Both the position numbers and the translations under genes were made by a program. The notes under the pieces were generated by a model. It worked only from the letters and a program-made list of their open reading frames with translations. It ran no database searches and was not told where the DNA came from. Below, in pieces: positions 1-27,966 of a DNA stretch of 64,000 nucleotides (position 1 is its first letter; every line of letters starts with the position of its first letter). Source of the DNA: Dictyostelium discoideum (taxonomy: Eukaryota); contig CM000152.2 in assembly GCA_000004695.1 (NCBI GenBank), positions 1,952,001 through 2,016,000 on the forward strand. Direction: 5' to 3'.

Positions 1-1
1 C

Positions 2-165
2 TTTAAAGAATATGTTAAAAAAATGACAGATAATGGAAAAATTAAATTAAAAAATTTCAAATATGAAAATTGTAATTGCCAAATTTGTTTAAATGAACCA
101 CCTATAATTATTAAAGATAAAGATCCTCCAAAAAGTGCATCAACTTGGATAGATTATATAAGAAT
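2..165 (+). CDS. Terminal part of exon 1 (partial, gene starts upstream of window) of acidic/poly-Asn protein gene. Frame 2 is open from the window edge and reads ...FKEYVKKMTDNGKIKLKNFKYENCNCQICLNEPPIIIKDKDPPKSASTWIDYIR
   Basis: Open frame from base 2. GTATGA donor at 166. Joins in phase to the downstream exon; otherwise the next ATG would sit only 50 nt after the stop. Confidence 0.5.
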
Positions 166-248
166 GTATGATTTTTTCAAAATCAATAAAACAATTTTTT
201 AATAAATAAATATATATTGCTACTAATATTTCCCTCTCTCTCTCCCAG

Positions 249-334
249 ATCAATGTTTTGTTTAAATAAACAACAAAAATTAAAGATTGATCAAAAAGAA
301 CAACAATGTAGAAATAAAATAAAAGTAAATGAAA

Positions 335-397
<63 letters not shown>

Positions 398-957
398 GTA
401 ATGGTAATATAGGTGGATATATTGAAAATGGTAAAGAATATTTTATCAATACAAGAGATTTATATGAATATATGGAAGCACATAAAGGATTATTAGAAAT
501 AACTCAATCATTTCAAACTTTTCAACCAAGGGATATTAGATTAGCTCTTTGTCAATGTTTAAGTTATAATTCAAATATATTTAAAAGTGGTAAAGATTAT
601 TTAGGTGTTGGATTTTGGACTTTACATGATGTAGATGATGATCCTTGGTACGATATTGATATACCAGATGATATACCCACTCAACGTTTAGTAAATGGTA
701 AATTAATGCCAATTTGTTTAGCTCAAACTCCAAAAGGTTATTGTCAAAAAGTTGGTACTTGTCCACATCATCAAAAATGGAATAAATCAATGGCTGAATC
801 TGATAGTGAATCTGAAGATAATCATGAAAATAAAATAATTTTAAAAGGTAAAAATATAAAGAAAAATAAAGAACATGAACATGAAATAGAGGAAACAGAA
901 GAACAAGATGAAGGAGAAGAAGCAGAAGAACAAGATGAAGGAGAAGAAGAGGGAGAA

Positions 958-988
<31 letters not shown>

Positions 989-1986
989 GGGAAGAAGAGG
1001 GAGAAGAAGAGGGAGAAGAAGGAGAAGAATTTTCACAACTAACAATTATAGAACAAGAAGATGAAGAAGAGTATGAAGAAGTAGGAGAAGAGGAAGAAGA
1101 GGTAGAAAATGATGAACAAGAAGAAAATGAAGGAGAGGGAAACAAAGAATATGTAGATAGTGATTATGGTGATGAAAATGTTCAAACATACAACCAAGAT
1201 GAAGAGTGCGAATACGAAAATGATAATGATGACGAACAGTATGAAAAAGAACATTATTATAACGATGATGGCGATGATGATGAAGAATATGAATATTTAG
1301 ATGATTATGATGATGATGATGATGATGATAAAAATGATGATGATAAAAATGATGATGATGATGATGATGATGAAGTAGTTGATTGTTATAGTAATAGAAA
1401 TTATGATAGGGAAGAAATAGGTTTTGATATGTATTCATTAGGTGGAAAATGTAAAAATTTAGAACCAACTAAAATAGAGAAAGAAATAATGCACTCTTTC
1501 TCATTTGCACCAATTTTAAAAAAAGTTTTGGAAGAATATACAAATGAAACTCAAAAAGAGATACCAACGGAATTACATTTATTACCAAGAGAATACACAA
1601 GATTTATGATTTTAAAATTCATAGATAACGATATGAAAGTTAAAGATATAACACTTGTTAGTTTACAATCACCAACTTTAATAACAAAATTTTGGTATCA
1701 TCATCTATCCTTCACTCAAATGTATAATCAATTTTGTAAATTACTAAAAACTAAAATTTATAGTTATCCCAATATCTATAATGATCCATTACCAATTCAA
1801 AGGAAAAGGTATCTTAGAACTTTGAAACTTTATAGACACTATTTCATCTCTAATAAATATAATAATAATGACTCTGTTTTTACATTCACTAAAAAATTAA
1901 AAAAAAACTCAATCCCAATTAATAATCTTGTTTCTCATCAAAATTTACCATCAATTATATGGCCATTAGATTTATTCACACCTTAA
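249..1986 (+). CDS. Exon 2 of the same gene. Acidic protein with a 20xAsn run, Glu/Gly-rich repeats (EEGEEEE) and an Asp-rich tract. Unknown function
   Basis: Intron 166..248 (83 nt, GTATGA...CTCTCTCCCAG) joins codon AT|A. ORF 217..1986 in the six-frame track. Poly-N tract at 343..402. Confidence 0.55.
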
Positions 1987-2713
1987 ATAAATAAATAAAT
2001 AAATAAAAAATATAAATTATTAATAAAAAAAAACAATTGTATTATTATCATTATTTATTAATCTGAAAAGTGGAGAAATAAAAATAAAAATAAAAATAAA
2101 AATAAAATTAAATAAAATTAAAAAAATAAATGTATTTTTACATTCTATTTTTAAACTTTACACACACCCCTTTAACTTTTTTTTTTTTTTTTTCTCACAT
2201 ATTATTTTTAAATGTTAACCTATTTTTGTTTCACCCTTTTTTTTTGTCATTTGTTTTATTATTCTTTTTTTTTTTTTAATTTCAAACTGTTGTGAATGCA
2301 ACATTATTTTATTTTTTTTAACACTATTAGCTCCAAAATGCCATAAATCATCACACTTCAACAATTATTTTCGTACATGTCATTTCCAAAAATGACTAAA
2401 GTGAGAAATTCAACCACTCTCATTACAATTATTATAATTTTTTTTTTTTTTTTTATAATAATAAGATTTAATTTCGATTTAAATTTAATTTCACAAGCAA
2501 TAAAAAAAAAAGAATAAAAATAAATTTTATAAACAAAAAAAATAAAAAAAAAAAAAGTATAAAAAAAAATTATTTCAAACATTAATTATTAAAAAGATAA
2601 AATAAAAAAAAAAAAGTTAAGACCAACAACTTTTTTTTCTTTATTTTTTTTTTTTATTTTAAAAATTAATTTTTCCTATCTTATTATTAAAAAAAAACTC
2701 TGTTTAATTAAAA

Positions 2714-3838
2714 ATGGCAAGAACGGATAATGTTCAATTACCTTTGGAAAATACAAGTATTGAATTTGAAGAAGAGATTATTGATTCCCAAAATGACATA
2801 TCACAACAAAAAAATTATCAAGATTTTTTAAAAAATATTCCAACTGATTTAAATGAAAGAAAAGAGTATATTTCATCTTTGAAGAAATTAATCAAACTTG
2901 AAAAAAGAAATCATCAACAAATTCAGGGTGAGCAACCAAATCAACAAGAAGGTCTCAATAGTGATCGTCCACCACCAAACCATCATGGTGACCATCACCA
3001 TTCTCTACCTCCTCCAAATCATCATGGTGACCATCATCACCATTCTCAACCCCCACCAAATCATCATGGTGATCATCATCACCATTCTCCACCTCCACCA
3101 CACCATCATGGTGGTCATCACCATTGTCCACCACCACATCATGGTGGCCATCACCATTGTCCACCCCCTCCACCACACCATCATGGAGGCCATCATCACC
3201 ATTGTCCACCCCCACCACACCATCATGGAGGTCATCATCACCATTGTCCACCACCTCCACCACCACACCATCATAGTCATCATCACCATTGTCCACCACC
3301 TCCACCACCACATCATCATGGAGGCCATCATCACCATACTCCACCACATCCTCCACCACATCACCATGGAGGCCATCACCACCATTGTCCACCATCGCCA
3401 CACCATCATGGAGGCCATCATCACCATAGTCCACCACCTCCACCACCACATCACCATGGGGGCCATCATCACCATTGTCCACCTCCACCACATGATGGCA
3501 ATGAATATCTACCACAATCTCAAACTAATATTGAACAATGTATCTGTCGTTTAAATAGAAAGAAAGAATTATTAATTGCAAAGATTCAATCTATTGATTC
3601 AATAATTTACAATTTGGAATGTTTAAACAAACAAAATTACCAAAACAATTATTTACCATCAATTCAACTACAACCAACCCAACAACCACAACAACCACAA
3701 CAAACATCAATTAAACCACAACAAATGTGTCAACAATTTTTTATTCCCCAAACTCCAAATTTCCCCCAAATGAACAATTCTGCACCACTAATGTATGTCT
3801 CTCAAATTCCAGTCCAACAATCATTCAACAATAATTAA
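2714..3838 (+). CDS. Histidine/proline-rich tandem-repeat protein, single exon. Unique N-terminal 75 aa, about 17 copies of PPP(P)HHHGGHHHH(C/S), then a Q/P-rich C-terminus. Putative metal-binding protein
   Basis: ATG in A-rich context. Uninterrupted 374-codon ORF. GC-rich 39-nt imperfect repeats. Spurious ORFs in the other frames and on the opposite strand are typical of repeat DNA. Confidence 0.75.
   Translation: MARTDNVQLPLENTSIEFEEEIIDSQNDISQQKNYQDFLKNIPTDLNERKEYISSLKKLIKLEKRNHQQIQGEQPNQQEGLNSDRPPPNHHGDHHHSLPPPNHHGDHHHHSQPPPNHHGDHHHHSPPPPHHHGGHHHCPPPHHGGHHHCPPPPPHHHGGHHHHCPPPPHHHGGHHHHCPPPPPPHHHSHHHHCPPPPPPHHHGGHHHHTPPHPPPHHHGGHHHHCPPSPHHHGGHHHHSPPPPPPHHHGGHHHHCPPPPHDGNEYLPQSQTNIEQCICRLNRKKELLIAKIQSIDSIIYNLECLNKQNYQNNYLPSIQLQPTQQPQQPQQTSIKPQQMCQQFFIPQTPNFPQMNNSAPLMYVSQIPVQQSFNNN
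2965..3492 (+). repeat. Imperfect tandem array of about 39-nt units (ccaccaccacaccatcatggaggccatcatcaccattgtcca), roughly 14-17 copies, coding
   Basis: Direct visual periodicity. Each unit encodes PPPHHHGGHHHHC. Confidence 0.85.
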
Positions 3839-3943
3839 ATGTACACAATAATCTTAAATAAAATTATTATTTTTATTCTTTACATTTAAATAAAAAAAAG
3901 TGATTTGTGTAAATTCTTTTTTTTTTAAAAAAAATAATTTAAT

Positions 3944-4294
3944 TCAATCACAGACTGTGTAAATTGTTTGACATTGTTTTAAAACATTAACTGTCTCTTC
4001 TCCACATTTTTTCATTGAACATGAATTTTCACCAAAGTAAGGGTAATCATAAAATTCATTTGAAAAACTACATTTATTTGAAATGATACAAATATCTCTA
4101 ACTCTTTCAGCATATTTACATTCATTAGTGTTTTTCTTTTTTGGATGACAAGTATTTGTTACACCATTACAAATTCCATAATCACCACATCCATCTTCTG
4201 TACAATTTGTTGTGTTTGGAATTTCAATTTCAATACATTTTTTAAACTCTTGATAACTTTCATCTTCATTAAAAAATTCATTAAATGTTTGACA
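3944..4294 (-). CDS. Exon 2 of secreted cysteine-rich protein (116 aa, CQTFNEFFNED...QTIYTVCD*)
   Basis: AAAATAG acceptor. Phase 0 continuity. The Cys-rich composition continues. TGA stop at 3944-3946. Confidence 0.65.
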   Translation of the reverse strand, partial: CQTFNEFFNEDESYQEFKKCIEIEIPNTTNCTEDGCGDYGICNGVTNTCHPKKKNTNECKYAERVRDICIISNKCSFSNEFYDYPYFGENSCSMKKCGEETVNVLKQCQTIYTVCD

Positions 4295-4344
4295 CTATTT
4301 TAATGTTATTATAAATGAGTATTTAAATTAATATTTTTAATTTT

Positions 4345-4397
<53 letters not shown>

Positions 4398-4399
4398 AC

Positions 4400-5080
4400 A
4401 CCTAATCCTAAATCACATTCATTATTAGTACTACAAGAATCATTTATTTTTTTTGAATATCTTGAAAGACAAATTCCATCTTTTGAACAAACACCACCAA
4501 TAAAGCAATCGGAATCATATGAACAATTTCCTCCTAATGATGATAATTGTGTACATGATGAACTACAATTAGTAATATCGTCTTCACAATTGTTAAGATT
4601 ACATGCTTGTGTTCCTGGACATGTGAAATAACCTAAACAATTAATTTTATCATATTGTAAAGTTTCATTAAACCAAAATGTGCATTTTGAATTTATACAC
4701 TTAAGATTAAATTGACCCATTCCAAAACAATCAAAATCCGAATCACAATCTTCACCAAGTCCAGCATAATTTGCAGCCTTACAAGTATATGGAGAACCTA
4801 CTTCAAAATCCAATGGAAGACATTCAAGACCAATTTCACATGGACCCAAGTATTTCTCTTTACACTTTTCCCCAAGTTTTAATTTTGGTTTACAAACATA
4901 CTCTGATTGTTCATTATCATCATCAATTGGTAAACATGCTAAACCATAACCACATGAAATATCAATGCCATAAGATTGTACACATGGATGGCCTAATGAA
5001 AAACATTTGCTCTCATTAAAGCAATGTGAAGAATTTATTAATGAAACTATTACAAATATTAATGATAATATTAATTTCAT
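4400..5080 (-). CDS. Exon 1 of secreted cysteine-rich protein. Signal peptide MKLILSLIFVIVSLINSSHC, then repeated 6-Cys modules (CxxGLxCLP, CDSDxDC)
   Basis: ORF 4343..5080 minus. GTAAGT donor immediately after ...CDLGLG. The poly-K tail of the raw ORF is intron read-through. Confidence 0.7.
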
Positions 5081-5410
5081 ATTTTTTTTAATTTTTTTTT
5101 ACTTTTATAATTATTAAATCTTATAAATATTTAATTTTAAATTGAAATAAAAAATAAATAAAAAAAATCCATATTTATATCTTTTTTTTCTAAATAATTT
5201 TAATTTTATTTAATTAAAATTTAATTTAATACATCTTTATTTTTAAAGAAAACAAGCAAAAAAATTTTTTTTTTTTTTTTTATTCATTTTTGTGTTTCCC
5301 ACATGGATAAGAATATTCCCAAAAATTAAAAAAAAAAAAAAAAATTCTTCTTAACAAGATTAAACCCAAATAAATGAGAATATATACCAAATAACAATTT
5401 CTTTTTTAAT

Positions 5411-5555
5411 CATTTTTTGAAAAAATTTTTTGTTCTCTTAAAAAACTTTTTATCTTTTTTTTTTTTTTTTTTTTCCTTTCTGTTTTTTTTTTTTCTCTTA
5501 AAAAAACTTTTTATCATTTTTCTTTTTTTTTCCTTTCTGTTTTTTTTTTTATGAA
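5411..5555. repeat. Local tandem duplication of about 60 bp (ctcttaaaaaa(a)ctttttatc...tcctttctgttttttttttt), 2 copies
   Basis: Direct repeat seen in sequence. Confidence 0.7.
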
Positions 5556-5559
5556 ATGA

Positions 5560-6694
5560 TCGAAATATATAAAATTAAGTTATAACTATGAAAATATTCC
5601 AGATATACAAATTACTAATGGTGAAAATGATGTTATTTTTAAATATGTTTTTAAAAATGGTAGGGACAAGAATAAACAACCTTCAAATTTATCTTTAGTT
5701 TGTTGGAATTGGTTTCAATTAAATTCAAAGCTATTCTATAAAATAGGAAAAATAAAAATTAAACAGAAAACATTTAATAATATTTTATTTTATCACGAAT
5801 ATCTTCCATATAATAGAAACATTAGAAACAAGACCACCTTTTACTCTCCAATCAAATCTCAATTTCAAGGAAAAAAAGAAGAAATTGATTCAACCAAATT
5901 TTCAAAATATAAATTATTAAATTTTAATTATGTTCAAAGTGTAAATTCATATCTACTTCCATTAGAATCAATATTTAAAACTTTTAAAAATATTAAACAA
6001 ATAAAATTATCACTATTCTTACTTCCAATTGAAATTGTATTAGATAGTATAAAAACAATTTTAAAATATCAAACAAAAAATGAACTTTCATTTTATTTAG
6101 AATATGAAACTAAAAAACTACCAGATTCAGTGGATTCATTAATTATGGAGGAATCCACTAGTAAAGAATTTTATTATTGTGATTATTTACTATTTAAAGC
6201 ACCAAACATTTATAAACAAAAAATGTTTAGACAATTGAAATTTATCGAGTTAATGAATCCAATAAAATTACATCTAAAATCATCACATCATTCTTTTACA
6301 AAAGAATTTTTCAATGGTTGCAATACATTGAAAAGCTTTATTTTTGGTGGTGATTTTTTGGAATTACAATCTTTAAATATGGCAATTGAATCATCAAGTT
6401 TAATAGAAACCATTAAAGCAAAGTTCTTATTTCATGATTTACATTATCATTTAGAAGATCCAACGTTTGTTAATGGAACTCAATTAGAACCACTATATCG
6501 ATTCATTTCCATGTAGTTACTATAAACCTGAAGTACCTTATGATTATTCATTTACAAACTATTTCAATCATTTTAAACGACTTTGTGAAAATCTTAAAAA
6601 TACTAAAACTTTAAAACATTTGAATTTAAATAATTATTGTTATAAACCAATTTCAAGATGTAAAATTAGATCCAAACCAAATAATAATAATAGA

Positions 6695-6763
<69 letters not shown>

Positions 6764-7219
6764 TTATGTAATTCAAATTTATATTCAAGTTTTTTTAATT
6801 CACTTGAATTAAATAGTTCATTAACAAAGTTAGTAATTTCAAATTGGAGTTTTGAAAATGAAACACCAGGATTAATAGATTCACTTTGTAATAATAAATC
6901 AATTATAAACCTATCACTAACTAATGGTGCATTAAGAGGTGATATAGATTTACCATTAGTTTCTAAATTATTAATATCATCAAGTACAAATAGAATTTTT
7001 ATATTAAATATATCATTTAATTATTTCACTGATATTGATAATTTAATTAAAATTATTAATGATTCAGAACCAAATTTAAATAGATTATTAATTTTAAAAA
7101 TTAATGGTTTTTGTCAATATTCAATGCTTGATAATTTAACAATAGTACGACCACAGGTTAAAACAAAAAATGATATCAATAAAACTTGTCAATTTGAATT
7201 AAAAATTGTCAAAAATTAA
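5560..7219 (+). pseudogene. LRR-like, Asn-rich ORF family member. It has no ATG for the first 190 codons and a +1 frameshift in the 6488..6516 overlap; probable pseudogene or mis-assembled gene. Frame 1 is open 5560..6516; frame 2 is open 6488..7219 and contains a 24xAsn tract
   Basis: The two long open frames overlap by 29 nt. The intron alternative was rejected (see noticed_but_rejected). Leu-rich xLxxLxL periodicity (LKINGFC, LSLTNGAL). Confidence 0.45.
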
Positions 7220-7524
7220 TTCAAATATTAAAAATAGAAATGTTAAAATAAGAAATTATGAACCCTTTGATTATATAGGTATTAAAAGATTTAAAATAAA
7301 AGAGTATTTTTAAAAAAAAAAAAAAAAAAAATTATAAATTATAATTTCTTTTATTTATTTATTTTATTTATTTATTTATTTTATTTATATACATATTTAT
7401 TTAATTTTAAGTATTTAAATTTTTTTTTTTTTTTTTTTTTTTCTTTGTTCTTTGTTCTTTTATCACACCAATAGTTCAATTATTTGTTGGAAGTTGTGAG
7501 TATATTACAAATATAATCACACAT

Positions 7525-7551
<27 letters not shown>

Positions 7552-7557
<6 letters not shown>

Positions 7558-7689
7558 AGTCATTTGAGATGGTAATGGAAGACCCAATTTTGTTGGCTCG
7601 AGTGATTTTGGATGAGCATGTTTTTTAATCCATGGATGGTTAATAACATCTTTTAATGTAATTCTTTGATGTGGATCTGATACAAGTAA
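7552..7689 (-). CDS. aurK: Aurora kinase exon 5 LLVSDPHQRITLKDVINHPWIKKHAHPKSLEPTKLGLPLPSQMTY*
   Basis: TTTTTAG acceptor. Conserved HPWI motif. Total protein 384 aa. Confidence 0.8.
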
Positions 7690-7780
7690 CTAAAAATTAT
7701 TTTGAAAGAAAAAAAAGAAAATTATATTAGTATCCTTTAAAATGAATAATTAATAATAAAAATTAAATTAAATTAAATAC

Positions 7781-8065
7781 TCTTGAAATTAAATCTTTTG
7801 CTTCAGGTGATATTGAAGATGGATAATAAACATCATTCTCTTGTATATTGTGGAAAATATTTTTCTCTTCATCAGAGGTGAAAGGTGAACGACCAACTAA
7901 AAACTCAAATATGAGAATACCTAAACTCCAAACATCAGCTGTTTGATCATAACCTTTCTTTTCAATAACTTCTGGTGGTAAATATTCTAATGTACCACAA
8001 AATGTACTTCTCTTTGTATTTGGTGCATGAACTGACCATCCAAAATCTGCAATTTTAATTTCACC
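7781..8065 (-). CDS. aurK: Aurora kinase exon 4 GEIKIADFGWSVH...SISPEAKDLISR (DFG, APE-like PPE, activation loop)
   Basis: Homology. Donor is the non-canonical GTATTT. Confidence 0.8.
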
Positions 8066-8173
8066 CTTTTAATAAATAAATAAATAAATAAAAAAAAATA
8101 AAAAAAATAAAAAATAAAAAGGTTAATAACTAAAATGTATATAAAAAAAAAAAAAAAAAAAGGAAAAACTTAC

Positions 8174-8269
8174 ACCAACACCAATTAAAAGATTTTCTGG
8201 TTTAATATCTCTATGAATAACATGTTTTGAATGACAATATCTCAAAGCATCTGCAATTTGTAATGTATA
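8174..8269 (-). CDS. aurK: Aurora kinase exon 3 [32 protein letters not shown] (catalytic loop HRDIKPEN)
   Basis: GTAAGT donor. Homology. Confidence 0.85.
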
Positions 8270-8302
<33 letters not shown>

Positions 8303-8394
8303 ATTAATATAAAATATTATGAATATTGTGGTAGTAGGTTATTTTTAAAATAGAAAATAGAAAATAAAAACAAAAAAAAAATATTAATACTTAC

Positions 8395-8533
8395 AGTAGC
8401 AGCAGTTTGTTCATTAAAAGATCCGACTTTTTGTAACTCTTTAAAACATTCACCACCTTTGGCAAATTCAATAATTAAGAAAACTCTTTTATCATCATAA
8501 AAATATCCAAATAATCTTAAAATATTTGGATGT
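8395..8533 (-). CDS. aurK: Aurora kinase exon 2 (R)[46 protein letters not shown]
   Basis: Acceptor AAAAAAG. Phase-2 join completes the Arg codon. GTAAGT donor. Confidence 0.85.
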
Positions 8534-8667
8534 CTTTTTTTAGTAAAAAAAAAAAATTATTATTATTATTATTTTTATTATTAAAAAATTAAATTAGTAA
8601 ATTTGTTTTTATTTTTATTTTATTTTTATTTTTATTTTGAAAATATTTTCACTAAAATTTATATTAC

Positions 8668-9164
8668 CTTAAATGAGATTGAATTTCAATTTCCCTTCTT
8701 AATTGATGCTCTATATTATGTGTTTGTAATTGATTTTTAAATAAAACTTTGAGTGCAACAATGAATTGACTCTTTTTCTCCCTTGCTAAATAAACGTGAC
8801 CAAATCTACCCATTCCTAATAATTTACCAATATCAAAATCATCAATACACCATTTTTTCTTTGGTACTGATTGAGATGATGAAGATGAAGATGAAGATGA
8901 GGATGAAGATGAAGATGAAGATGAAGATGAAGATGAAGATGAAGATGATGCTGTTGTTGTTGGTGGTATTGTTGAAGTATTAGTTGATGTAGTGGCCCCA
9001 GTTGTTGTTGGTTTTGTAATTGTTGATTTAACAGTCGATGTTGTTTGATGATTATTTATATTTGTATTTTGTTGTTGAAGTACTCTTTGTGGTTGTTTAC
9101 TTGGTACTGAGAATGAACCACCACCAATATTGTTACTATTTTCTTTATTATTTGGATAACTCAT
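8668..9164 (-). CDS. aurK: Aurora kinase exon 1. N-terminal Asn/Thr-rich region, a 28-Ser homopolymer, and the kinase N-lobe [61 protein letters not shown](R)
   Basis: Near-identity to the Aurora GxGxFG and [27 protein letters not shown] motifs. GTAATA donor at 8667. Confidence 0.9.
8878..8945. repeat. (GAAGAT)n imperfect hexanucleotide repeat. On the coding (minus) strand it is (TCTTCA)n and encodes the poly-Ser tract of Aurora
   Basis: Seen in sequence. Confidence 0.9.
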
Positions 9165-9179
9165 TTCTTTAATTTAAAT

Positions 9180-9215
<36 letters not shown>

Positions 9216-9528
9216 AACCAAAAAAAAAAATAAAAAGTTTTAATTTTAATTTATTTTATTTATTTGTTATTATTGGATTATATTTTATTATTATATTGAA
9301 ATATTAAAAACAATAAAGAAAAAAAAAAAAAGAAAATTTGTTTTTTTTTTTTCACAAAAATTAAAAAAAAAAAAAAAAGTGGAAAAAAAGGAGCTTAACG
9401 ACAAATTAAGGCGCAAATTTTAAATTTTTCAAATTTTTAATTTAAAAACAAAAAAAAAAAAAAAATGGAAATAAAAAAATAAAAATAAAAATCTATTTTT
9501 AGAATTAAAAAAAAAATAAAGTTTTTTA

Positions 9529-9826
9529 TTAATCGGTTTTAAATTCACTCATAGTTTCTAAGAATTGTTTTCTTGAAGCTTCCAACATTGATTTTTTTCT
9601 TTGTTGTAAACTCGTATATCTTTCTTGTGATGTCGATTTAAATGAATCTGAAAACTTTTCCAATGGTTTAATTGGTAAAATTGAAGATTTATCTTCATTT
9701 TGATTATTATTATTATTATTATTATTATTATCATTATTATTATCACCATTATCATTATTATTATTATTAATATTATTATTGCTATCTACAGGTTCATCCA
9801 ATTTAGAATGATTACTTTTATCTTTA

Positions 9827-9892
<66 letters not shown>

Positions 9893-10570
9893 TTACTTCC
9901 ACTACTGCCACTTCCATCCATACTTTGATCTTTTTTGTTTGGATCTTTAAAGTGGGTTTGTTTTGAAGGAGACATAGCTTCGCCACTGTCAGTACCATTA
10001 GTACTATTACTGTAATCACTGCTATTATCATTGTTATCATTATTATTATTATTATTATTATTAACAACATTGTTGTTATTATTATTATTATTGTTATTAT
10101 TGCTATTATCTTGAGCTAAAGTTGAAGGTTCGACCAATCTACCCTCTAAAATGTTATCTATAGTTCTATTTACATTATTTGTTTGCAATAAATCATTTTG
10201 GATGGTTTGAGTTGAAATATTTTCAAATAAACCATGAATATAGTTTGCATTGTACACCAAATTATTATATTGTGATGCTGTTAATGATTGCCTTGATAAG
10301 GTTCTTGGTATACCATTTGAATATTCTGGTCCTGTTGGTGATGAGGAAGATGAAGATGGTGATGTAATTGATAATGGATCTATTGCTGTCGATGCTGATG
10401 TTGATCCTGTACCACCATTTATAGTTGTTGTTGTTGTTACCCCTGATGCTCCTGCTATTGTTGCTGTTGCTGTACCATTATTACCTAAATGATGTTGATG
10501 TTCATCAATTAATGATCTTCTACAAGTTGGACATGAGTGATGTTGTTCTAACCATGCTCTTAAACAAGAA
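9529..10570 (-). CDS. hrd1: Hrd1 exon 6. Rest of the RING-H2 (HSCLRAWLEQHHSCPTCRRSLI), then a long Asn/Ser-rich low-complexity tail
   Basis: TTTTTTAAAG acceptor restores CGHIFH-H-SCLRAW. ORF 9529..10260 is its in-frame 3' part. Confidence 0.8.
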
Positions 10571-10703
10571 CTTTAAAAAATTAATAATAATAATAATAAT
10601 AAATAAAAAAATAAAAGAGAGAGTTAATTTCAAATAACATATATTTTTTCTTTTCTTTTTTTTCTTTCAAAAAAAAAAAAAAAAAAAAAAACACTATACA
10701 TAC

Positions 10704-10968
10704 TGATGAAATATATGACCACATGGTAATTTTTTAGCGGTAACCATTCTATCTCTACAAATTGCACAATCATCATTATAATTCTCTAAATCTTTTTCAC
10801 CTACATTTGGATAACAATTATCCATATCTGAAGTTAATTTACAATAGTTTCTATATGCTGTAATCTTTCTATTTAAATTTCCAAACACCATCTTAAAGTA
10901 GAAAAACATTACAACATGTAATAAAGTTGGTGTAAACCCTTGAATAATAATAATATGAATTAAATGTG
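10704..10968 (-). CDS. hrd1: Hrd1 exon 5, includes the first half of the RING-H2: DDCAICRDRMVTAKKLPCGHIFH
   Basis: T10AG acceptor. GTATGT donor, phase 2. Matches Hrd1 CIICREEMVTGAKRLPCGHIFH. Confidence 0.8.
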
Positions 10969-11064
10969 CTAAAAAAAAAATAAAAAATAAAAAATAAAAA
11001 ATAAAAAAATTAGTGAATTAAATTATAAAAGTATATAATAAAAATAAAAATAACAATAACATAC

Positions 11065-11218
11065 CACAAGTTCCTGCTAAAATTACTGAATCTGTTGAAA
11101 ACTCTGTATAATAAATATATTGTCCTCTTTTATCCCAAACATCTTCTGATGATAAATCGAATAAATGAATTGAATATTTAATCAATGTTTGAACAGTTTC
11201 AAAAAATATTGTAAAACA
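11065..11218 (-). CDS. hrd1: Hrd1 exon 4 CFTIFFETVQTLIKYSIHLFDLSSEDVWDKRGQYIYYTEFSTDSVILAGTC
   Basis: TTTAAAG acceptor. GTATGT donor (phase 1). Homology. Confidence 0.7.
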
Positions 11219-11225
11219 CTTTAAA

Positions 11226-11320
<95 letters not shown>

Positions 11321-11412
11321 TTAATAATAATAATAATAATAATAATAATTAAAGTTAGTAAAACAAAATGAAATTATAATAATTTTTAATTAATTAATTA
11401 ATATCAACTTAC

Positions 11413-18654: not shown

Positions 18655-19995
18655 AGTCCAAGTAATATTCCACCAATTGTTGAAACCATTCCATTCATCG
18701 GATGTTTTTATCAATTTGCAAAGAATCCATTACAATTAGTTCGTAATAGTTATGATAGATTAGGTGAAATTTTCACACTCCATTTAATGGGATTCAAAAT
18801 GACATTTGTTCTTGGACCAGAGGCACAAGCATTATTTTTCCGTGGTACCGATGAAGAACTCTCACCAAAGGAAGCTTATAGATTTGTAACACCAGTATTT
18901 GGTAAAGGTGTTGTCTATGATAGTGAAACAGAGATTATGTATGAACAACTTCGTTTCGTAAAGAATGGTTTAGTTTTATCACAATTGAAGAAAGCAGTTG
19001 GTATCATTCAAGAAGAGACTGAAAAATATTTCGAAACTAAATGGGGTGATTCAGGTGAAATCGATCTTTTATATGAAATGAATAAACTTACCATTCTCAC
19101 TGCATCTCGTTGTCTTATGGGTAAATCAATCAATAAATCATTGGGTCAATCAGGTCAACTCGCTGACTTGTACCACGAATTGGAAGAAGGTCTCAATCCA
19201 ATTTCATTCTTTTTCCCAAATCTCCCATTACCATCATTCAAAAAGAGAGACGCTGCCCGTGCTAAAGTCGCCGCCATTTTCCACTCTATCATTCAAGAAC
19301 GTAGACGTTCAACTGACGATAGTGTCGATGATGTCCTCTACACCCTCATGAACTCCAAATACAAAGATGGTTCAGTCCTCGAAGATGAACAAATCGTTGG
19401 TCTCATGATTGGTTTATTATTCGCCGGTCAACATACCTCTTCAATCACCCTTACTTACACCATTTTCTACCTCCTCAACAATTTAGAATATTTCGATGAA
19501 ACTCAAAAGGATATCAATGATATCGTTCAAAAAGAGAATCAAGGCGAAATCAATTTCGATGGTCTCAAGAGAATGAATCGTTTGGAAACTGTAATTCGTG
19601 AAGTTCTTCGTCTTCATCCACCTTTAATTTTCCTCATGAGAAAAGTTATGACTCCAATGGAATACAAAGGTAAAACTATCCCAGCCGGTCACATCCTTGC
19701 TGTTTCACCACAAGTAGGTATGCGTTTACCAACTGTCTACAAGAACCCAGATAGTTTTGAACCAAAACGTTTCGATGTTGAAGATAAAACTCCATTCAGT
19801 TTCATTGCTTTCGGTGGTGGTAAACATGGTTGTCCAGGTGAAAATTTCGGTATCCTCCAAATTAAAACCATTTGGACTGTTCTCTCCACTAAATATAATT
19901 TAGAAGTTGGTCCAGTTCCACCAACTGATTTCACTTCTTTAGTTGCTGGTCCAAAAGGTCCATGTATGGTTAAATATTCAAAGAAACAAAAATAA
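18655..19995 (+). CDS. cyp51: CYP51 exon 2. Contains the conserved [20 protein letters not shown]-helix, ETLRLHPP and the heme-binding [14 protein letters not shown]
   Basis: Strong collinear similarity to human or fungal CYP51 across the whole exon. Confidence 0.9.
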
Positions 19996-20183
19996 AATTT
20001 TTAAAAAACTTATAATTTAAATTATTAAAAAAAAAAAAAAAAAAAAAAATTATTTATTTTGATCATCTTTTTTTTTTTTTTTTTGATTGTGATCACCATT
20101 TTTTTTTTATTTTTTTTATTTTTTTATTTTTTTATTTTTTATTTTTTAATTGAAAATTGTGATCATACACATAATCAAAAGTT

Positions 20184-20537
20184 ATGTCATCAAAGAGAAA
20201 AAGTCAAATTACCAATACCAATGGTAATGGTAGTGATAGTAAAAAAAAAATTGAAACAGAATATATAACTAGAAATAAAAGAATAAATGATACATATAAA
20301 TCAACAATTTTTGTATTTTCATTATTTTTCATTAGTTCAATTTTATCAGCAATTTATAATAGAATTTTAGATTGTGATGAATATATGAATTATTGGGAAC
20401 CAACTCATTATTTATTATATAATAAAGGTTTACAAACATGGGAATACAGTCCAACTTATTCATTAAGATCATATGCATATTTATTACTTCATGCTTTTAT
20501 GGGAAGATTATTAAACCCTTTTTCAAATGGAAATAAA
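20184..20537 (+). CDS. alg9: ALG9 alpha-1,2-mannosyltransferase exon 1 (DCDEYMNYWEPTHYLLYNKGLQTWEYSPTYSLRSYAYLLLHA)
   Basis: Signature DCDE(T/V)FNYWEP motif of ALG9. GTAAAT donor. Confidence 0.85.
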
Positions 20538-20559
20538 GTAAATAAAATCAATATATTTA

Positions 20560-20619
<60 letters not shown>

Positions 20620-20657
20620 TAAATCATATATATATATATTAATAATTATATTTTTAG

Positions 20658-20817
20658 ATAATATTATTTTATTTAATTAAAATTGGAATTGGATTTTTTA
20701 CATCAATTGCTCAAACTATATTCTATAGAGGTGTTAAAAATATGTTTGGTAGAGAAATTTCAAGATATACTTTAATATTTATGTTATTTTCACCAGCTTT
20801 CTTTTTATCAGGTTCAA
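20658..20817 (+). CDS. alg9: ALG9 exon 2
   Basis: TTTTTAG acceptor. GTAAGT donor (phase 1). Confidence 0.7.
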
Positions 20818-20898
20818 GTAAGTAAAGGTGGAAAAATAATAAAAATAAAAATAATAAATAATATTAATTTTTTTTTTATTTTTTTTTTTTATTAAAAG

Positions 20899-21365
20899 AC
20901 TTTTTACCAACAAGTTTTTCAATGACAACATTTATGGCAGCATATGGATTTTGGATGTTATATCAATCATCATCAACACCATTATCAGCATTATCACCAA
21001 ATGAATCATCTAATGAAGCTATTTATTCAGTATTTTTAAGTGCAACATCAGTATTCATGGGATGGCCATTTGTAATTGTATTGGTTATACCAATTGCATT
21101 GAATTTAATGATTAGAAATGGTTTTTTAAAAGTTTTCATGTGGGCATTGTTACCAGTTATTGCAGTTTTTATACCAATGATTTTAATTGATTATCAATAT
21201 TATGGAAAATGGGTAATTGCAATTTATAATATTATTGCCTATAATTTCACTTCAAATCATAGTGGTGGTTCTCAATTATATGGTATTGAAGATTGGCCAT
21301 TCTATTTCATAAATTCATTTGTTAATTATAATATTGTATTTTTATTTTCATTATTAACCATTCCA
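20899..21365 (+). CDS. alg9: ALG9 exon 3 (NFLPTSFSMTTFMAAYGFW...LLTIP)
   Basis: AAAAG acceptor. GTAAGT donor. Collinear with human ALG9. Confidence 0.75.
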
Positions 21366-21447
21366 GTAAGTAAACAATTGTTTTTAAACACATACACACA
21401 CATATAAATTAATTAAATTATTAATAACTTTTTATTATTTTATAAAG

Positions 21448-21991
21448 TTATTAATAATTTTTAGAAAATGGAGTGGTAGTTTAAAAAATTTAACAATGGT
21501 TTCAATAATTTATACATTATGTCCATATTATATTTGGTTTGGATTTATGACATATTTACCACATAAAGAAGAAAGATTCCTTTTCGTAATTTATCCATTC
21601 ATTGCATTGGCAGGTTCAATCTCATTTTATATTGGTTTAAATATTTTAAATGCAATAATTTTAAAAATTAGTGGTGGTGGTGCTGGTGGTAGTGATATTA
21701 AAAATAAGAAAAAAAATGATGATTTTAAATTAAAAAGTAAACAACAACAACATTATAATGTTAATATTTATCATGGTTTTGTTAATTTCATTAAATATTT
21801 AATTATCATCTGTTTCATTTTATTATCAGTCTCTAGAATTTATTCAACTTATGTAAATTATACTGCTCCATTCAATACATTAACTCATTTAAATAATAAT
21901 GTATTATTAAATGGTAATATTTCAATTTCAAATTTTTCAAAAAATAATAATATTTTAAAATCAAATAATAATAATAATAATAATAAAAGTG
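21448..21991 (+). CDS. alg9: ALG9 exon 4 (LLIIFRKWSGSLKNLTMVSIIYTLCPYYIWFGFMTYLPHKEERFLF...)
   Basis: Acceptor TATAAAG at 21447 chosen because it keeps frame and alignment length to human HPYWLTLAPMYIWF...PHKEERFLF. GTAAGT donor (phase 1). Confidence 0.65.
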
Positions 21992-22082
21992 GTAAGTTTA
22001 TAATTATTTTATTTTTTATTTTATTTTTTTATTTTTATTAATTACTAATTTAATTACTAATTTAATTTTTTTTAATATTTAG

Positions 22083-22288
22083 TAAATATTTGTATTGGTA
22101 AAGAATGGCATAGATATCCATCAAATTTCTTTTTACCAAATGATAATAATGAAATTGAATTTAATCTTAAATTTATAGAATCTGATTTTAAGGGTCATTT
22201 ACCAAAACCATTTTCAACATTACCAAATGGAACTGCAATTATTCCAACAAATATGAATGATCAAAACAAACAAGAATTTGATAGATAT
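22083..22288 (+). CDS. alg9: ALG9 exon 5 VNICIGKEWHRYPSNFFLPNDNNEIEFNLKFIESDFKGHLPKPF...
   Basis: Matches human VNVCVGKEWYRFPSSFLLP...RGQLPKPF. GTAAGC donor. Confidence 0.8.
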
Positions 22289-22386
22289 GTAAGCAAAAAA
22301 AAAAAAATTAAAATAACAATAACATAATAAAATAATTAACAATTCTTTTTTTTTTTATTTTTTTTTTTTTTATTTTTATTTTTTAG

Positions 22387-22605
22387 ATTAAACCAAATGA
22401 ATGTAGTTATATTATCGATTTTGATTCACCAACACAAAATGAAGAACATTATGTTAATGATACTTCAAATTGGAAAGTAATTTATTCTACAAAGTTTTTA
22501 GATGCAGCAGCTTCGACTAGCTCGTTGTATCGTGCTTTTTGGATTCCAAAATTGTCAAACCAAAAAAATGTCTATAATAACTATTACATTTTAGAAAAAA
22601 TATAA
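22387..22605 (+). CDS. alg9: ALG9 exon 6, C-terminus ...SSLYRAFWIPKLSNQKNVYNNYYILEKI*
   Basis: TTTTTTAG acceptor. Matches human SKLLRAFYVPFLSDQYTVYVNYTILKP. Confidence 0.8.
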   Translation: MKPNECSYIIDFDSPTQNEEHYVNDTSNWKVIYSTKFLDAAASTSSLYRAFWIPKLSNQKNVYNNYYILEKI

Positions 22606-22663
22606 AATAAAATAATTTGAAGTAGAAAATAGAGAGAGGGAGAGAGAATAATTTGAACCAATT

Positions 22664-22700
<37 letters not shown>

Positions 22701-22709
22701 TGTATATGT

Positions 22710-22748
<39 letters not shown>

Positions 22749-22767
22749 TTTTTTTTTTTAATATTTT

Positions 22768-23241
22768 TTAATTATCTTCATCATCTTCATCTTCTTCAAA
22801 TTCTTCAAATTCTTCATCTCCCTCCATTGTAATTTCAATACCTTCACCACCATTGATAGTATTTATTTGTTTTTGTTCCTCTTCTAATTCTTTTTGTACA
22901 GATTCATCATTTGGATCTAATGTCATAACATACTCCATTTGAATTCTAATATTATTCTCGAAAATATTTGGTATCATTGCTCTTTCTTCTTTTGATAACA
23001 TTTTGTCGACACTAATAACAATTAATGGTATCACTGGATTATTATTACTACCCTTGGTAATTAATTCGTGGTGTTCCAATTCCCATTTATATTGAAATGT
23101 TAAATTTAATGACTCTATAAATGATTTAATTCTTATTTCCTCATCTGTCAAAATTTTTGGTGGTGGCGGAGCTGTTGTTGTGTTAATAATTAAAGAAGGT
23201 TGTTTTTGCTCCTCCGAGGTGGTCACTGGGATTTGTGACAT
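22768..23241 (-). CDS. Small (157 aa) protein of unknown function with an acidic C-terminal tail (EEFEEFEEDEDDEDN)
   Basis: Clean ORF with ATG. No motif I can name. Confidence 0.5.
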   Translation of the reverse strand: MSQIPVTTSEEQKQPSLIINTTTAPPPPKILTDEEIRIKSFIESLNLTFQYKWELEHHELITKGSNNNPVIPLIVISVDKMLSKEERAMIPNIFENNIRIQMEYVMTLDPNDESVQKELEEEQKQINTINGGEGIEITMEGDEEFEEFEEDEDDEDN

Positions 23242-23812
23242 TTCGATTATTTTTTTAAAAAAAAAAAAAAAAATAAAAATTATTTAATTTTTTTTTTTTT
23301 TTATTTTTACCTGGATAATTGGTTTTTAAGTGGTAATTTTTTTTTTTAATTTTTTTTTAATTTTTTTTTTATTTTTGTTTTTTTTTTTTAATTTTTTTTT
23401 TTATTTTTTCCAATTTTCAATTGTTAGATTTGGCAAAGATTTCAATTTTTTTTAATTTAATTTTTTAAATTTTTTTTGTTTTTTTGTTTTTTGTTTTATT
23501 TTTTTTTTTTTTTATTTTTTTTATTATTTTTTTATTTTTTTTTTTCAACTCTTATTATTTTATAATTTATTATTATTATTAATATTATTATTATTATTAT
23601 TATTTTTTTTTTTTTATGATCGGAATTAAAATCAATTTAACAACAAAAATAAATAAATCAACACATATTAAATCAGTTTATAAAAAAATTAAAAGATAGA
23701 CACACGTTTTTTATTGTAAATTTCAAAATTTTATATAACTTTCCTCATCCATTCCTTTTTTAATAAAAAAAAAAAAAAAACAAAAAAAAAAAAAAACAAA
23801 TTAATTAATCTT

Positions 23813-24493
23813 ATGGGTTGTATTTTCACCAAACCTTCTCCTGAACAACAGAAATTTGATGGAGAAGATTATGAATGTGAAAATAAAAAGAATTTAAATT
23901 TAATTAGTTATATTAGAAATTTATTATTTGGAAATAATAGTCATCAACAACTATACAATGAAATAATACCAACAACAACCTCAACAACCTCAACAACAAC
24001 AAATTCAGTGTACCAAAATATTGGTCTAGATGGATACAATAATAATAACAATAACAATAACAATAATAACAACAACAATAATATAATGAATAATTACGGC
24101 TATGACGATTATGGTTATAGCTATGAAGAAGATGAGGATTATTATGATGAAATGCCAATACCAACAATAGTGGCACAACCACAACCACAACCACAACCAC
24201 AACCACAACCACAACCACAACCACAACAACCAATAAGAATAGTATCACAAAATCAACAAATACCAACAACACCACCACAACAAATATCACAATTTAATAT
24301 TACTGGAAATAAATCACCATCTTCAATAGGAAGTAGACATAGAAGTAAACCCAAAGAAACTTTAAGAGCACATAAAAAGAGACATAAAGATGGACATAAA
24401 ATGGTTAATGAATATGTTTTCGTAAGAAAATTAGGTAAAGGTACTTTTGGAAAAGTAAAATTAGCCTATCATCATGATACACATCATTTATAT
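23813..24493 (+). CDS. Ser/Thr protein kinase (CAMKL group, LKB1/CaMKK-like) exon 1. N-terminal MGCIFTK myristoylation/palmitoylation signal, poly-N, (PQ)n, start of the kinase domain (LGKGTFGKVKLAYH)
   Basis: GxGxFGxV glycine loop. GTAAGT donor after HHLY. Confidence 0.8.
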
Positions 24494-24582
24494 GTAAGTT
24501 TAATTATTATTATTAATTATTATTATATTTTAATTATATATTAATTTAATTTTTTTTTAATTTTTATTTTAATTATAATTAG

Positions 24583-25989
24583 GCAATTAAAATTTTTAAT
24601 AAAATTAGATTAAAGAAACAAACAATGGGTATTGGTAGACCAAATGCATTTGATGATGTATTAAAAGAGATTGCAATTATGAAAAAGATGAATCATATAA
24701 ATGTTGTAAAACTTTATGAAGTTATCAATGATCCACAAGAAGAGTATATTTACATTGTGATGGAGTATATTGAAGGTGGTAGTATAATGTCTGCCAATGA
24801 GACATCTGAAGATTTAGCTAGAAAATACTTTAGAGATATTGTATTTGGTCTTGAATATCTTCATGAACAAAAAGTCATTCACAAAGATCTAAAGCCAGAG
24901 AATCTATTGGTCAATAGTGAAGGTGTTGTAAAGATCACTGATTTCGGTGTCTCACATATTTTCGATGACGATGACGTTGTAAGATGCTCAAGAGGAAGTC
25001 CAGCATTCTTGGCACCCGAATTATGTAGAAACGAATCTCAACCAATCTCTGGCAAAGGAGTGGATGTTTGGGCATTGGGTGTTAGTTTGTATTGTTTAAT
25101 CTTTGCAAGAACTCCATTCATCTCAAAAACAAACTCCCTATTGGATATCTATGATCAAATTGTTAATCATGAACCAACCTATCCAAGAGAGATCTCAAAT
25201 GATCTAATGGATCTATTCAAAAGATTATTGGATAAAAATCCATTGACCAGAATTCAAATAGCAGAGATTAAATCACACAAATGGACCACAATCTCTGGTA
25301 CATGGCCAATGAATGAGTTGGACCATTTGATCTTATCAGTAACTGATCAAGAAATGATCGATGCCATTAGTACCGATCATACAATTAAACCATCCGATAA
25401 TACTACAACTGATGAAGATGATTCAGATTTAAGTAGTAGTAGTGGTGGTGAAAGTAGTGGTATAATAGGTTCAAGTAATGAAAGTAAATCAATGTATAAT
25501 AATGTAAATAGTAAACAAAAAATTCAAAATCAAAATCAAAATCAAAATCAAAATCAAAATCAAAATCAAAATCAAAATCAAAATCAAAATCATAATCAAA
25601 ATCAAAATCAAAATCAAAATCAAAACAATAATAACAATTCATTAATTGAAAAATCAAATATCTCAATACCAGCATCATCATCATCGATTAGTAATAATGA
25701 TAGTTGCTATGAAAATAGAAATGTATATATAAAAGATGAAGAAATGAATATGATATGTAACGACAGTGTAATTATGGATCCAATTAAAGAATTAAACAAA
25801 ATTGATGGATTAAATTATGGTTGTGATTTCCAAATTGGAAAAGAATATTCAGATTTTCAATATAACAGTGGCCATTTTATTTATGATTTGGTCGATGAAA
25901 ATGAATCTCAAATATCAAGAGAATCTGCAAATGATTACTATTTACCTTTTAAAACAAATAAATATCTAAACAATAAATCAATTGTTTAA
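24583..25989 (+). CDS. Kinase exon 2: AIKIF (VAIK lysine), HKDLKPENLL, DFG, GSPAFLAPE, then a C-terminal tail with a (QN)17 repeat
   Basis: AATTAG acceptor. Motifs collinear with LKB1 (GSPAFQPPE) and CaMKK. Confidence 0.85.
   Translation, partial: AIKIFNKIRLKKQTMGIGRPNAFDDVLKEIAIMKKMNHINVVKLYEVINDPQEEYIYIVMEYIEGGSIMSANETSEDLARKYFRDIVFGLEYLHEQKVIHKDLKPENLLVNSEGVVKITDFGVSHIFDDDDVVRCSRGSPAFLAPELCRNESQPISGKGVDVWALGVSLYCLIFARTPFISKTNSLLDIYDQIVNHEPTYPREISNDLMDLFKRLLDKNPLTRIQIAEIKSHKWTTISGTWPMNELDHLILSVTDQEMIDAISTDHTIKPSDNTTTDEDDSDLSSSSGGESSGIIGSSNESKSMYNNVNSKQKIQNQNQNQNQNQNQNQNQNQNQNHNQNQNQNQNQNNNNNSLIEKSNISIPASSSSISNNDSCYENRNVYIKDEEMNMICNDSVIMDPIKELNKIDGLNYGCDFQIGKEYSDFQYNSGHFIYDLVDENESQISRESANDYYLPFKTNKYLNNKSIV
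25521..25622 (+). repeat. (CAAAAT)n hexanucleotide microsatellite, about 17 units, coding for (QN)n
   Basis: Seen in sequence. Confidence 0.9.
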
Positions 25990-26170
25990 TTTTCATTGTA
26001 AATTAAAATTAAAAATAAAAATAAAAATAAAATAAAAAAAAAAAATAAAAAAAAAATAAAAAATTACAAAGATAAATTTGAAAATTAAATACCTGTATTA
26101 CATTTTTAAAATAATAAATATTCATTTCATTTTATTTAAATACTAAAATAAATTTAGTAAAAGCAAATCA

Positions 26171-26209
<39 letters not shown>

Positions 26210-26480
26210 ATTTATTTGGGTTTTCATTCCACGTTGCTTTTTTTAAAAAATCTTTTGAAATCTTGTTTTGGATTGTTTCGTTGCTTTTATAATAAAAATT
26301 TTTGGAAATAAACACGTTATATTATTATCATAAAGTTAGATTTGCTAATCAAAAAATGTCATCGTAAAATTATAATCGAAAATTGGAAAATGTAAAATTG
26401 GTTGTTATAAAAAAAAAAAAAATAATAAAACACCTTTTTTTCAACACCTAATTTTTTACTTTTCACAAATTTTTCTAAAC

Positions 26481-26513
<33 letters not shown>

Positions 26514-26759
26514 CAATATTACTATTTTATTTTAGTTAATATTTCCTTATATGGTTGTTTTTTTTATTTTATATTTTATTTTTTATTTATTTTTTATTTT
26601 TTTTTCAAAAATTCGGGTTGTGCCACATTAATTGTTTAATTATTTAAATTATAATAAATAAAATTGTTTATGTGGCATTTTTTTTTTATTATTTTTATTA
26701 TTAGTATAAAAAGAAATGGAATATTGTGAATTAGTAATCAAAAATTTAGTAAAATAAAA

Positions 26760-26928
26760 ATGAAATTAAAAATAAAATTTTCCATTATTTCACTTTTTAT
26801 TTTAAAATTGGTAATTTCAAAACCAATTTTAAAATTTAATAATAATAATCAATTTAAAATTATTCAATTTACAGATTTACACTATGGAAGTGAACCAGTT
26901 GATGATATTGATACTATTTTCTCTCAAG
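26760..26928 (+). CDS. Metallophosphoesterase paralog 1, exon 1 (signal peptide + FKIIQFTDLHYG metal-binding motif I)
   Basis: ATG. GTGATT donor, phase 1. Confidence 0.7.
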
Positions 26929-26932
26929 GTGA

Positions 26933-26965
<33 letters not shown>

Positions 26966-27022
26966 ATTTTTATTTTTAAAATAATTATATAAAATATTTT
27001 GATTTATTAATTTATTTTAAAG

Positions 27023-27874: not shown

Positions 27875-27966
27875 GTATGTATTAATTAATTAAAAAATCA
27901 TAATTATAAAAAATAAAAAAAATAAATTAACAATTGATTTTTCATTTATTTAAAATATTTAATTAG

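Follow-up and report, generated by a model that had tools for sequence, protein, structure and literature searches.

What does a histidine-rich tandem repeat do in a stretch of Dictyostelium DNA, and does it belong to a protein at all? The repeat in question lies near the beginning of a 64,000-nucleotide (nt) stretch of the Dictyostelium discoideum genome (GenBank assembly GCA_000004695.1, contig CM000152.2, positions 1,952,001 to 2,016,000 of the forward strand; the whole stretch is hereafter called the window). It is carried by an unbroken ATG-to-TAA open reading frame (ORF) at 2714..3838 of the plus strand, which, according to the ORF list and the translation, specifies 374 amino acids (aa). 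A first-pass annotation of this DNA had likened the product to the metal-sequestering proteins Hpn and HRG because of its composition. The ORF at 2714..3838 is a genuine, fast-evolving, single-exon protein-coding gene, because the ORF is intact and syntenic in three taxa, its indels are triplets except in the last ~12 codons, and the dN/dS ratio of its flanks is ~0.6. We tentatively regard the product as a cytosolic, probably oligomeric, high-capacity Zn/Ni/Cu-binding polypeptide, of which the charge would be switched by pH and which would resemble HRG and Hpn without being homologous to them; our probability for this reading is roughly 0.4. The gene is uncharacterised: a literature search found no paper on it, and its orthologues are labelled merely as 'hypothetical' in related genomes. 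The parts of the gene are as follows (pLDDT, predicted local distance difference test).

2714..3838, plus strand: complete single-exon coding sequence (CDS), 374 aa and a TAA stop (ORF list, translation, orthologous gene models with the same ATG)
2714..2968, plus strand: N-terminal unique flank, aa 1-85, with an acidic start (predicted helices at 2789..2833 and 2849..2929, pLDDT 56-68)
2969..3478, plus strand: twelve tandem units, aa 86-255 (unit parsing of protein and DNA, Tandem Repeats Finder, GC 53%)
3479..3493, plus strand: truncated 13th unit 'PPPPH', aa 256-260, which bridges the array and the C-terminal flank (unit parsing)
3521..3649, plus strand: conserved C-terminal helix, aa 270-312 (AlphaFold, pLDDT ~70, the best of the protein)
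3650..3835, plus strand: Q/P-rich disordered tail, aa 313-374 (pLDDT 28-38; last ~12 codons unconstrained)

The window as a whole has a GC content of 22.1% and contains poly-N and poly-Q coding tracts, both of which are typical of Dictyostelium. The repeat DNA is locally GC-rich, as had been noticed in the first pass: the array reaches 53.3%, compared with 27.5% and 29.6% in the two coding flanks, because it is built of CAY (His), CCN (Pro) and GGN (Gly) codons. Within the ORF, 75% of the His codons are CAT and 78% of the Pro codons are CCA, which resembles the preference of Dictyostelium genes for A/T-ending codons, and the start codon stands in the context aaaaATGg. Approximately 199 codons of flank are free of stops at ~28% GC, for which we estimate from base composition a chance in the order of 1e-9. 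Both the composition of the 374-aa protein and the ORF itself are far outside chance expectation. Three additional ORFs of 162-218 aa span the repeat, at 2898..3554 on the plus strand and at 2955..3515 and 3005..3493 on the minus strand. These are by-products of the repeat and not genes, as only the ATG frame runs on into the AT-rich flanks and is conserved.

A search with the whole protein against a collection of 5.8 billion sequences yielded only two significant homologues, both 'hypothetical proteins' of Dictyostelium: P0001, which is 356 aa long and labelled D. discoideum, and P0002, which has 294 aa and the label D. cf. discoideum. Exact-sequence look-ups of the protein and of 8 neighbouring ORFs gave no match. 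The gene models at the two orthologous loci, L001 (10001-11071) and L002 (10001-10885), consist of a single exon with the same ATG and, on contigs of 2.9 and 6.8 Mb, are placed between the same plus-strand gene upstream and the same minus-strand gene downstream. Window positions 1..5401 are 87% identical to L001 at the nucleotide level, and the intergenic DNA of the three taxa differs by ~13-15%. In the three-way alignment of the CDS all gaps are multiples of 3, with the exception of the extreme 3' end (the last ~12 codons); gaps in the neighbouring intergenic alignment are of arbitrary size (e.g., 2, 5, 11, 19 and 22 nt). At the 3' end, a 2-nt indel between 3790..3838 of the window and ~11020..11071 of L001 shifts the frame of the last ~12 codons, so that the protein closes with MYVSQIPVQQSFNNN in the former and with MYVSNSSPTTISTINKCTQ in the latter, each followed by a stop; the extreme C-terminus is therefore unconstrained. 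For the non-repeat flanks, dN/dS ratios (omega, Nei-Gojobori method) ranged from 0.44 to 0.78, and the pooled values were ~0.58-0.61 (one-sided Fisher test, p = 0.02-0.06), suggesting that the gene is under only moderate constraint. The first-pass view that the gene is real is thus borne out by an uninterrupted ORF of which the frame is kept in three related genomes. The concern raised at the same time, that the repeat might be an assembly artefact, was not upheld and we reject it, as arrays of the same kind are found in two other, independent assemblies.

The array extends over aa 86-260 (2969..3493) and was recovered by Tandem Repeats Finder at 2972..3492 with a period of 42-48 nt and matches of 74-82%. 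It comprises 12 full units and the shortened 13th, not the ~17 repeats counted initially; the counterpart of the terminal PPPPH is PPQPH in L001 and PPQH in L002. The first three units follow the pattern PPPNHHGDHHH(H)S and the remaining nine P(3-6)-HHH-GG-HHH(H)-C/S/T. A tandem unit rich in His and Pro, with Gly and Cys in addition, is therefore present as described in the first pass, but its length is not fixed at 13 residues, since units of 11-16 aa occur. Likewise, the His content of 45% attributed to the entire protein applies only to the 175-aa array (45.1%), and 80 of the 374 residues (21.4%) are His in the whole chain; the corresponding figures for Pro are 31.4% and 18.4%. Where 7-8 His and one Cys had been claimed for each unit, we counted 5-7 His, with an eighth in the Pro spacer of one unit, and a unit-final Cys in 7 of the 12 units, the others ending in S, T, SL or SQ. 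In sum, the array carries ~79 imidazoles and 7 thiols. Cys amounts to 11 of 374 residues (2.9%) and is present singly at unit ends. Differences between units go beyond the one-Pro indel reported earlier: the Pro spacers comprise 3-6 residues and are interrupted in places by H or S. Among the 14 Pro runs of the protein, three have 6 consecutive Pro, and with 26 overlapping PPP motifs its translation should depend on eIF5A (PMC4218817). The calculated net charge is -2.4 at pH 7.4, +24 at pH 6.5 and +47 at pH 6.0.

Seven of the 22 Gly codons are GGC, every one of which is located inside the repeat core GGAGGCCAT/GGTGGCCAT. GGC counts as a rare Gly codon in Dictyostelium and, if it is indeed rare, its reuse shows that the units descend from duplication at the DNA level. 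The window carries 12 units, L001 carries 10 and L002 carries 8, and all changes are in frame. In the comparison of units among the three taxa, the best DNA match of many units was the unit at the same position in another taxon; for instance, units 11, 9 and 5 of the window match units 9, 7 and 4 of L001 with 98%, 96% and 92% identity, respectively. Most of the array therefore predates the split of these taxa. A few lineage-specific neighbouring units were also found (units 1-3 in the window and units 6-7 in L002). The ongoing unequal crossing-over proposed in the first pass agrees with the in-frame shifts in unit number, but the turnover is moderate and does not amount to rapid homogenisation.

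To judge from the databases, the gene appears to be confined to the D. discoideum complex. A search with the flanks only recovered P0002 alone and nothing beyond Dictyostelium, although its sensitivity is doubtful because P0001 was missed. When the C-terminal 114 aa were scanned with HMMER against 1.84 billion representatives clustered at 50% identity, only P0002 and P0003, a leucine-rich-repeat protein, were present among the matches listed. The hit to P0003 (E = 6e-5, five repeated stretches) was judged to be spurious. A control search with Utp14 demonstrated that the database contains proteomes of D. citrinum (86% identity), D. dimigraforme (86%), D. firmibasis (82%) and D. purpureum (61%); no entry of the AX4 reference (DDB_G) was obtained in it. 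Separately, we noticed that the assembly GCA_054859355.1, which is labelled D. discoideum, and the window share a Utp14 protein that is 95% identical and local DNA that is ~87% identical; one or the other therefore does not represent D. discoideum sensu stricto.

The architecture of the protein was predicted by AlphaFold2 from the three-sequence alignment (mean pLDDT 48). Helices were predicted at aa 26-40, 46-72 and 270-312, and neither the array between them, with pLDDT mostly <50, nor the Q/P tail received any secondary structure. The predicted helices are the most conserved parts of the protein, 41 of 47 columns being invariant among the three orthologues at aa 20-66 and 32 of 43 at aa 270-312. 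Hydrophobic residues read from the sequence of the latter helix follow a 3-4 spacing of the kind usual in coiled coils (I273, I277, L280, L287, I291, I294, I298 and L301), and the helix is probably a coiled-coil oligomerisation module. We confirmed with tblastn that both flanks are unique within the window and from composition that the C-terminal tail is Q/P-rich; the tail is partly deleted in L002. The N-terminus, MARTDNVQLPLENTSIEFEEE, is polar and acidic, with a mean Kyte-Doolittle hydropathy of -0.49 over the first 25 aa, and no signal peptide was detected from its hydropathy. No membrane segment was found either, as the maximum 19-residue hydropathy, 1.1, is too low for a membrane helix. 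Lacking a detectable signal peptide or membrane segment, the protein is expected to be cytosolic or nuclear, and a secreted or extracellular-matrix protein was rejected for want of a signal peptide. The 374-aa protein matched no Pfam family at E <= 10, and a sequence search of the PDB gave no match.

How could such a protein work? Clusters of the HHHH and HxH types are established ligands of Zn, Ni and Cu in HRG, Hpn and His-tags, and the array combines 45% His, in runs of 3-4, with Gly hinges and Cys. We propose that the flanking helices would oligomerise the protein and that the array would form a flexible, multivalent field of ligands, in which the imidazoles and thiols are displayed on rigid polyproline spacers. 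Such a field could reversibly bind many Zn2+, Ni2+ or Cu ions per chain, and the protein would then act as a high-capacity metal buffer or store in the cytosol. The same histidines would constitute a steep pH switch, acidification freeing the metal and turning the chain into a polycation, while the array would evolve through in-frame gain and loss of whole units. Findings in other systems are consistent with this proposal. HPRG has a His-Pro region that also consists of tandem repeats and varies between species; it contains 32-51 His and binds Zn (PMC4101493), compared with ~79 His per chain here, both numbers being in the tens. HG and HS low-complexity domains are associated with zinc handling and transport in eukaryotes and bacteria (PMC11132505). 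In Dictyostelium, classical metallothionein activity was reported not to be detected, and high levels of Zn and Cu are tolerated (10.1101/356949), leaving room for a different type of buffer.

Nevertheless, several observations weigh against a dedicated metal buffer. First, the unit-final Cys swaps with Ser or Thr at orthologous positions by single-base changes, and Cys is therefore not a conserved ligand. Together with the weak constraint on the flanks (omega ~0.6) and a unit number that falls to 8 in L002, such toggling would not be expected of a tuned metal site. Second, no homologue was present among the matches listed for D. citrinum, D. dimigraforme, D. firmibasis and D. purpureum in searches of their proteomes, and so narrow a range makes a core role in metal homeostasis unlikely. 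Third, His-Pro low-complexity domains as a class are linked statistically to transcription and not to metal transport (PMC11132505), so composition alone does not single out metal sequestration.

Among known systems, the closest functional parallels would be Hpn and the His-Pro region of HRG/HPRG, but the protein belongs to neither family. It shares with HRG/HPRG, in composition and organisation only, a central tandem His-Pro-Gly repeat of species-variable copy number (here 12, 10 and 8) and Pro-rich sequence around the repeat; Zn binding and pH-dependent behaviour would be the expected chemistry of both. HRG, a type 3 member of the cystatin superfamily, is, however, a glycoprotein that is secreted and contains disulfides and two cystatin-like domains. 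The Dictyostelium protein lacks a signal peptide, and cystatin-like domains were found neither in Pfam at E <= 10 nor in the AlphaFold model, which has only three helices. Its unit of 11-16 aa, its true polyproline spacer, its two His blocks split by GG and its helical flanks likewise set it apart from HRG, to which it has no homology. With Hpn and Hpn-like, the nickel-storage proteins of Helicobacter pylori, it has in common an extreme His content (~45% in the array), few Cys and a probable cytosolic location. Hpn-like contains a Gln-rich part, as does the tail of the 374-aa protein. Hpn and Hpn-like are, in contrast, bacterial proteins of 60-72 aa without Pro spacers or regular tandem units, and no relationship to them was detected in the whole-protein, Pfam and PDB searches.

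Other His-rich proteins are more distant parallels. HRP2 of Plasmodium falciparum, which binds metal and haem, is also a lineage-restricted His-rich tandem repeat of variable copy number encoded in an AT-rich genome, but it is exported, its repeats (AHHAHHAAD) lack Pro and Gly, and its sequence is unrelated. The mussel glue protein mefp-12 similarly combines His richness with coiled-coil segments; it is secreted and bears its His within helices, whereas those of the Dictyostelium protein, which is apparently intracellular, are placed in a disordered array flanked by helices. Hisactophilin is a small, folded, myristoylated beta-trefoil, in contrast to the disordered tandem array predicted here, and the two have no sequence similarity. 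We rejected membership in the hisactophilin family, which is marked by a folded, N-terminally myristoylated His-rich domain of ~118 aa, as the protein starts with MA and not MG, its His region is predicted to be disordered and no family match was obtained. A metallothionein was also rejected: Cys makes up 2.9%, against about 30% arranged in CxC, CC and CxxC clusters, and stands singly, toggling with Ser or Thr.

Alternatively, protonation of the His rather than metal storage may be what matters, a possible though doubtful explanation. The protein would then be a scaffold or condensate former switched electrostatically by pH, neutral at the resting pH of the cytosol and strongly cationic upon acidification, which would bind reversibly to membranes, actin, nucleic acids or polyphosphate or would undergo phase separation, the coiled-coil flanks providing multivalency. 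The steep rise in calculated charge and the position of the disordered array between helices in the AlphaFold model fit this explanation. Hisactophilin and mussel mefp-12 would be its analogues: hisactophilin, a His-rich protein of the same organism, is reported to bind actin and membranes in a pH-dependent manner through His protonation near physiological pH (PMC13405390). Q/H-rich low-complexity domains serve as pH sensors (PMC11132505), and His-rich coiled-coil peptides from a mussel protein phase-separate depending on Zn and pH (PMC13022425). Nevertheless, the protein has neither homology to hisactophilin nor a folded domain, and its weak conservation and narrow taxonomic range speak against a core role. 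A pH-responsive scaffold is, moreover, compatible with metal binding and does not exclude it.

It is also conceivable, albeit unlikely in our view, that the gene is a young, near-neutral orphan with little or no selected function, in which a coding minisatellite has grown by replication slippage or unequal exchange and is tolerated in a proteome already rich in low-complexity tracts. Detection only within the D. discoideum complex, an omega of borderline significance, the varying copy number and the tolerated terminal frameshift all point in this direction, as do the shared GGC codons, which, if GGC is indeed rare, would indicate that the units were amplified as DNA rather than shaped by convergent selection. 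Against a near-neutral origin, the frame has been kept over ~1.1 kb in three taxa, while the intergenic DNA has diverged to the extent given above with many non-triplet indels. Moreover, 74-87% of the columns in the helices are invariant, many units are kept at orthologous positions, and a tract with 53% GC is maintained in a genome with 22% GC.

A nuclear, transcription-associated low-complexity protein is decidedly unlikely. The array and the Q/P tail would in that case serve as regions of the speckle- or condensate-targeting or activation type, and the helices would dimerise. In many eukaryotes, His-Pro low-complexity domains show enrichment among proteins related to transcription, and D. 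discoideum has abundant HQ domains, which are linked to transcription (PMC11132505); the Q/P-rich tail and the heptad pattern in the C-terminal helix would suit this role. However, the Pfam search revealed no recognisable domain, DNA-binding or otherwise, inspection by eye showed no clear nuclear localisation signal, and the Q/P tail is poorly conserved, with a partial deletion in L002 and a terminal frameshift in L001.

Very improbable is a scaffold of polyproline ligands similar to the FH1 region of formins, in which 12-13 Pro tracts would recruit profilin or SH3, WW or EVH1 proteins, with the His linkers playing a secondary part. The Pro runs and the overlapping PPP motifs favour it, and the spacing of the Pro tracts recalls that of formin FH1 regions. 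Most tracts have, however, only 3-4 Pro, below the typical size of profilin-binding tracts; no FH2, WH2 or other actin-related domain was found in the Pfam search, and the 45% His would be left unexplained. A formin FH1 region proper was rejected, as Pro tracts are present but Pfam detected no FH2 or other domain. Finally, it is hardly credible that the ORF is no gene but arose by chance from a GC-rich minisatellite devoid of stops, or from faulty assembly: although the repeat is open in another plus frame and two minus frames, the ATG frame alone extends stop-free for ~255 nt and ~345 nt into the AT-rich unique flanks and is kept in three genomes with triplet-only indels, and two independent assemblies hold similar arrays.

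The surroundings of the gene and the other recognised features of the window are listed below.

2398..2435, plus strand: upstream 38-nt block, candidate promoter or 5' untranslated region element (intergenic alignment, 100% conserved in three taxa)
18787..19995, plus strand: cytochrome P450
24625..25989, plus strand: protein kinase
36781..39138, minus strand: protein with a PLEKHM2-like PH domain
48906..51371, minus strand: Utp14
52834..54018, plus strand: SNF5-domain protein

The upstream block, AAAGTGAGAAATTCAACCACTCTCATTACAATTATTAT, lies ~280 bp 5' of the ATG and shows 100% identity among the window, L001 and L002, in the midst of AT-rich intergenic DNA full of indels; it may be an element of the promoter or of the 5' untranslated region. 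The upstream neighbour, at 217..1986 on the plus strand, encodes, besides a poly-N tract, very long low-complexity tracts that are rich in Glu and Asp, and has no Pfam match; its orthologues in L001 and L002 are 650-693 aa long. The downstream neighbour, at 4343..5080 on the minus strand, is Cys-rich with a signal-peptide-like N-terminus, MKLILSLIFVIVSLINSSHC, and also has no Pfam match. Its ORF ends in a poly-K run, probably by reading into an intron, and the orthologues in L001 and L002 have 342-343 aa. Further downstream, collinearity is broken: ~5400..11330 of the window (~5.9 kb) and ~12570..16970 of L001 (~4.4 kb) share only short matches, which suggests an indel or a rearrangement between the taxa, and the interval in L001 holds a protein-kinase gene. 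None of the recognised genes at 18787..61683 of the window has an obvious link to metal handling.

If the near-neutral explanation proves true, the locus would join the other low-complexity curiosities of a genome rich in repeats. It is of interest for gene birth and repeat evolution, as an orphan dated within one species complex with an array that can be traced unit by unit through three genomes. On the practical side, we infer that a protein with ~80 His should co-purify on Ni or Co affinity resins from Dictyostelium lysates. One may speculate further, in a form that is quite unlikely when taken as a whole, that this lineage has invented a cytosolic Zn/Cu/Ni buffer based on His and not on Cys, which is oligomerised by coiled-coil flanks and is loaded and unloaded with cytosolic pH, possibly condensing with metal during starvation, development or bacterial killing; a recent gene would then share in the 'muffling' of metals. 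Research on how Dictyostelium handles Zn and Cu is active, and the organism has no known buffer of the metallothionein type (10.1101/356949). If metal binding holds true, a model phagocyte would possess an intracellular equivalent of HRG and Hpn that is homologous to neither.

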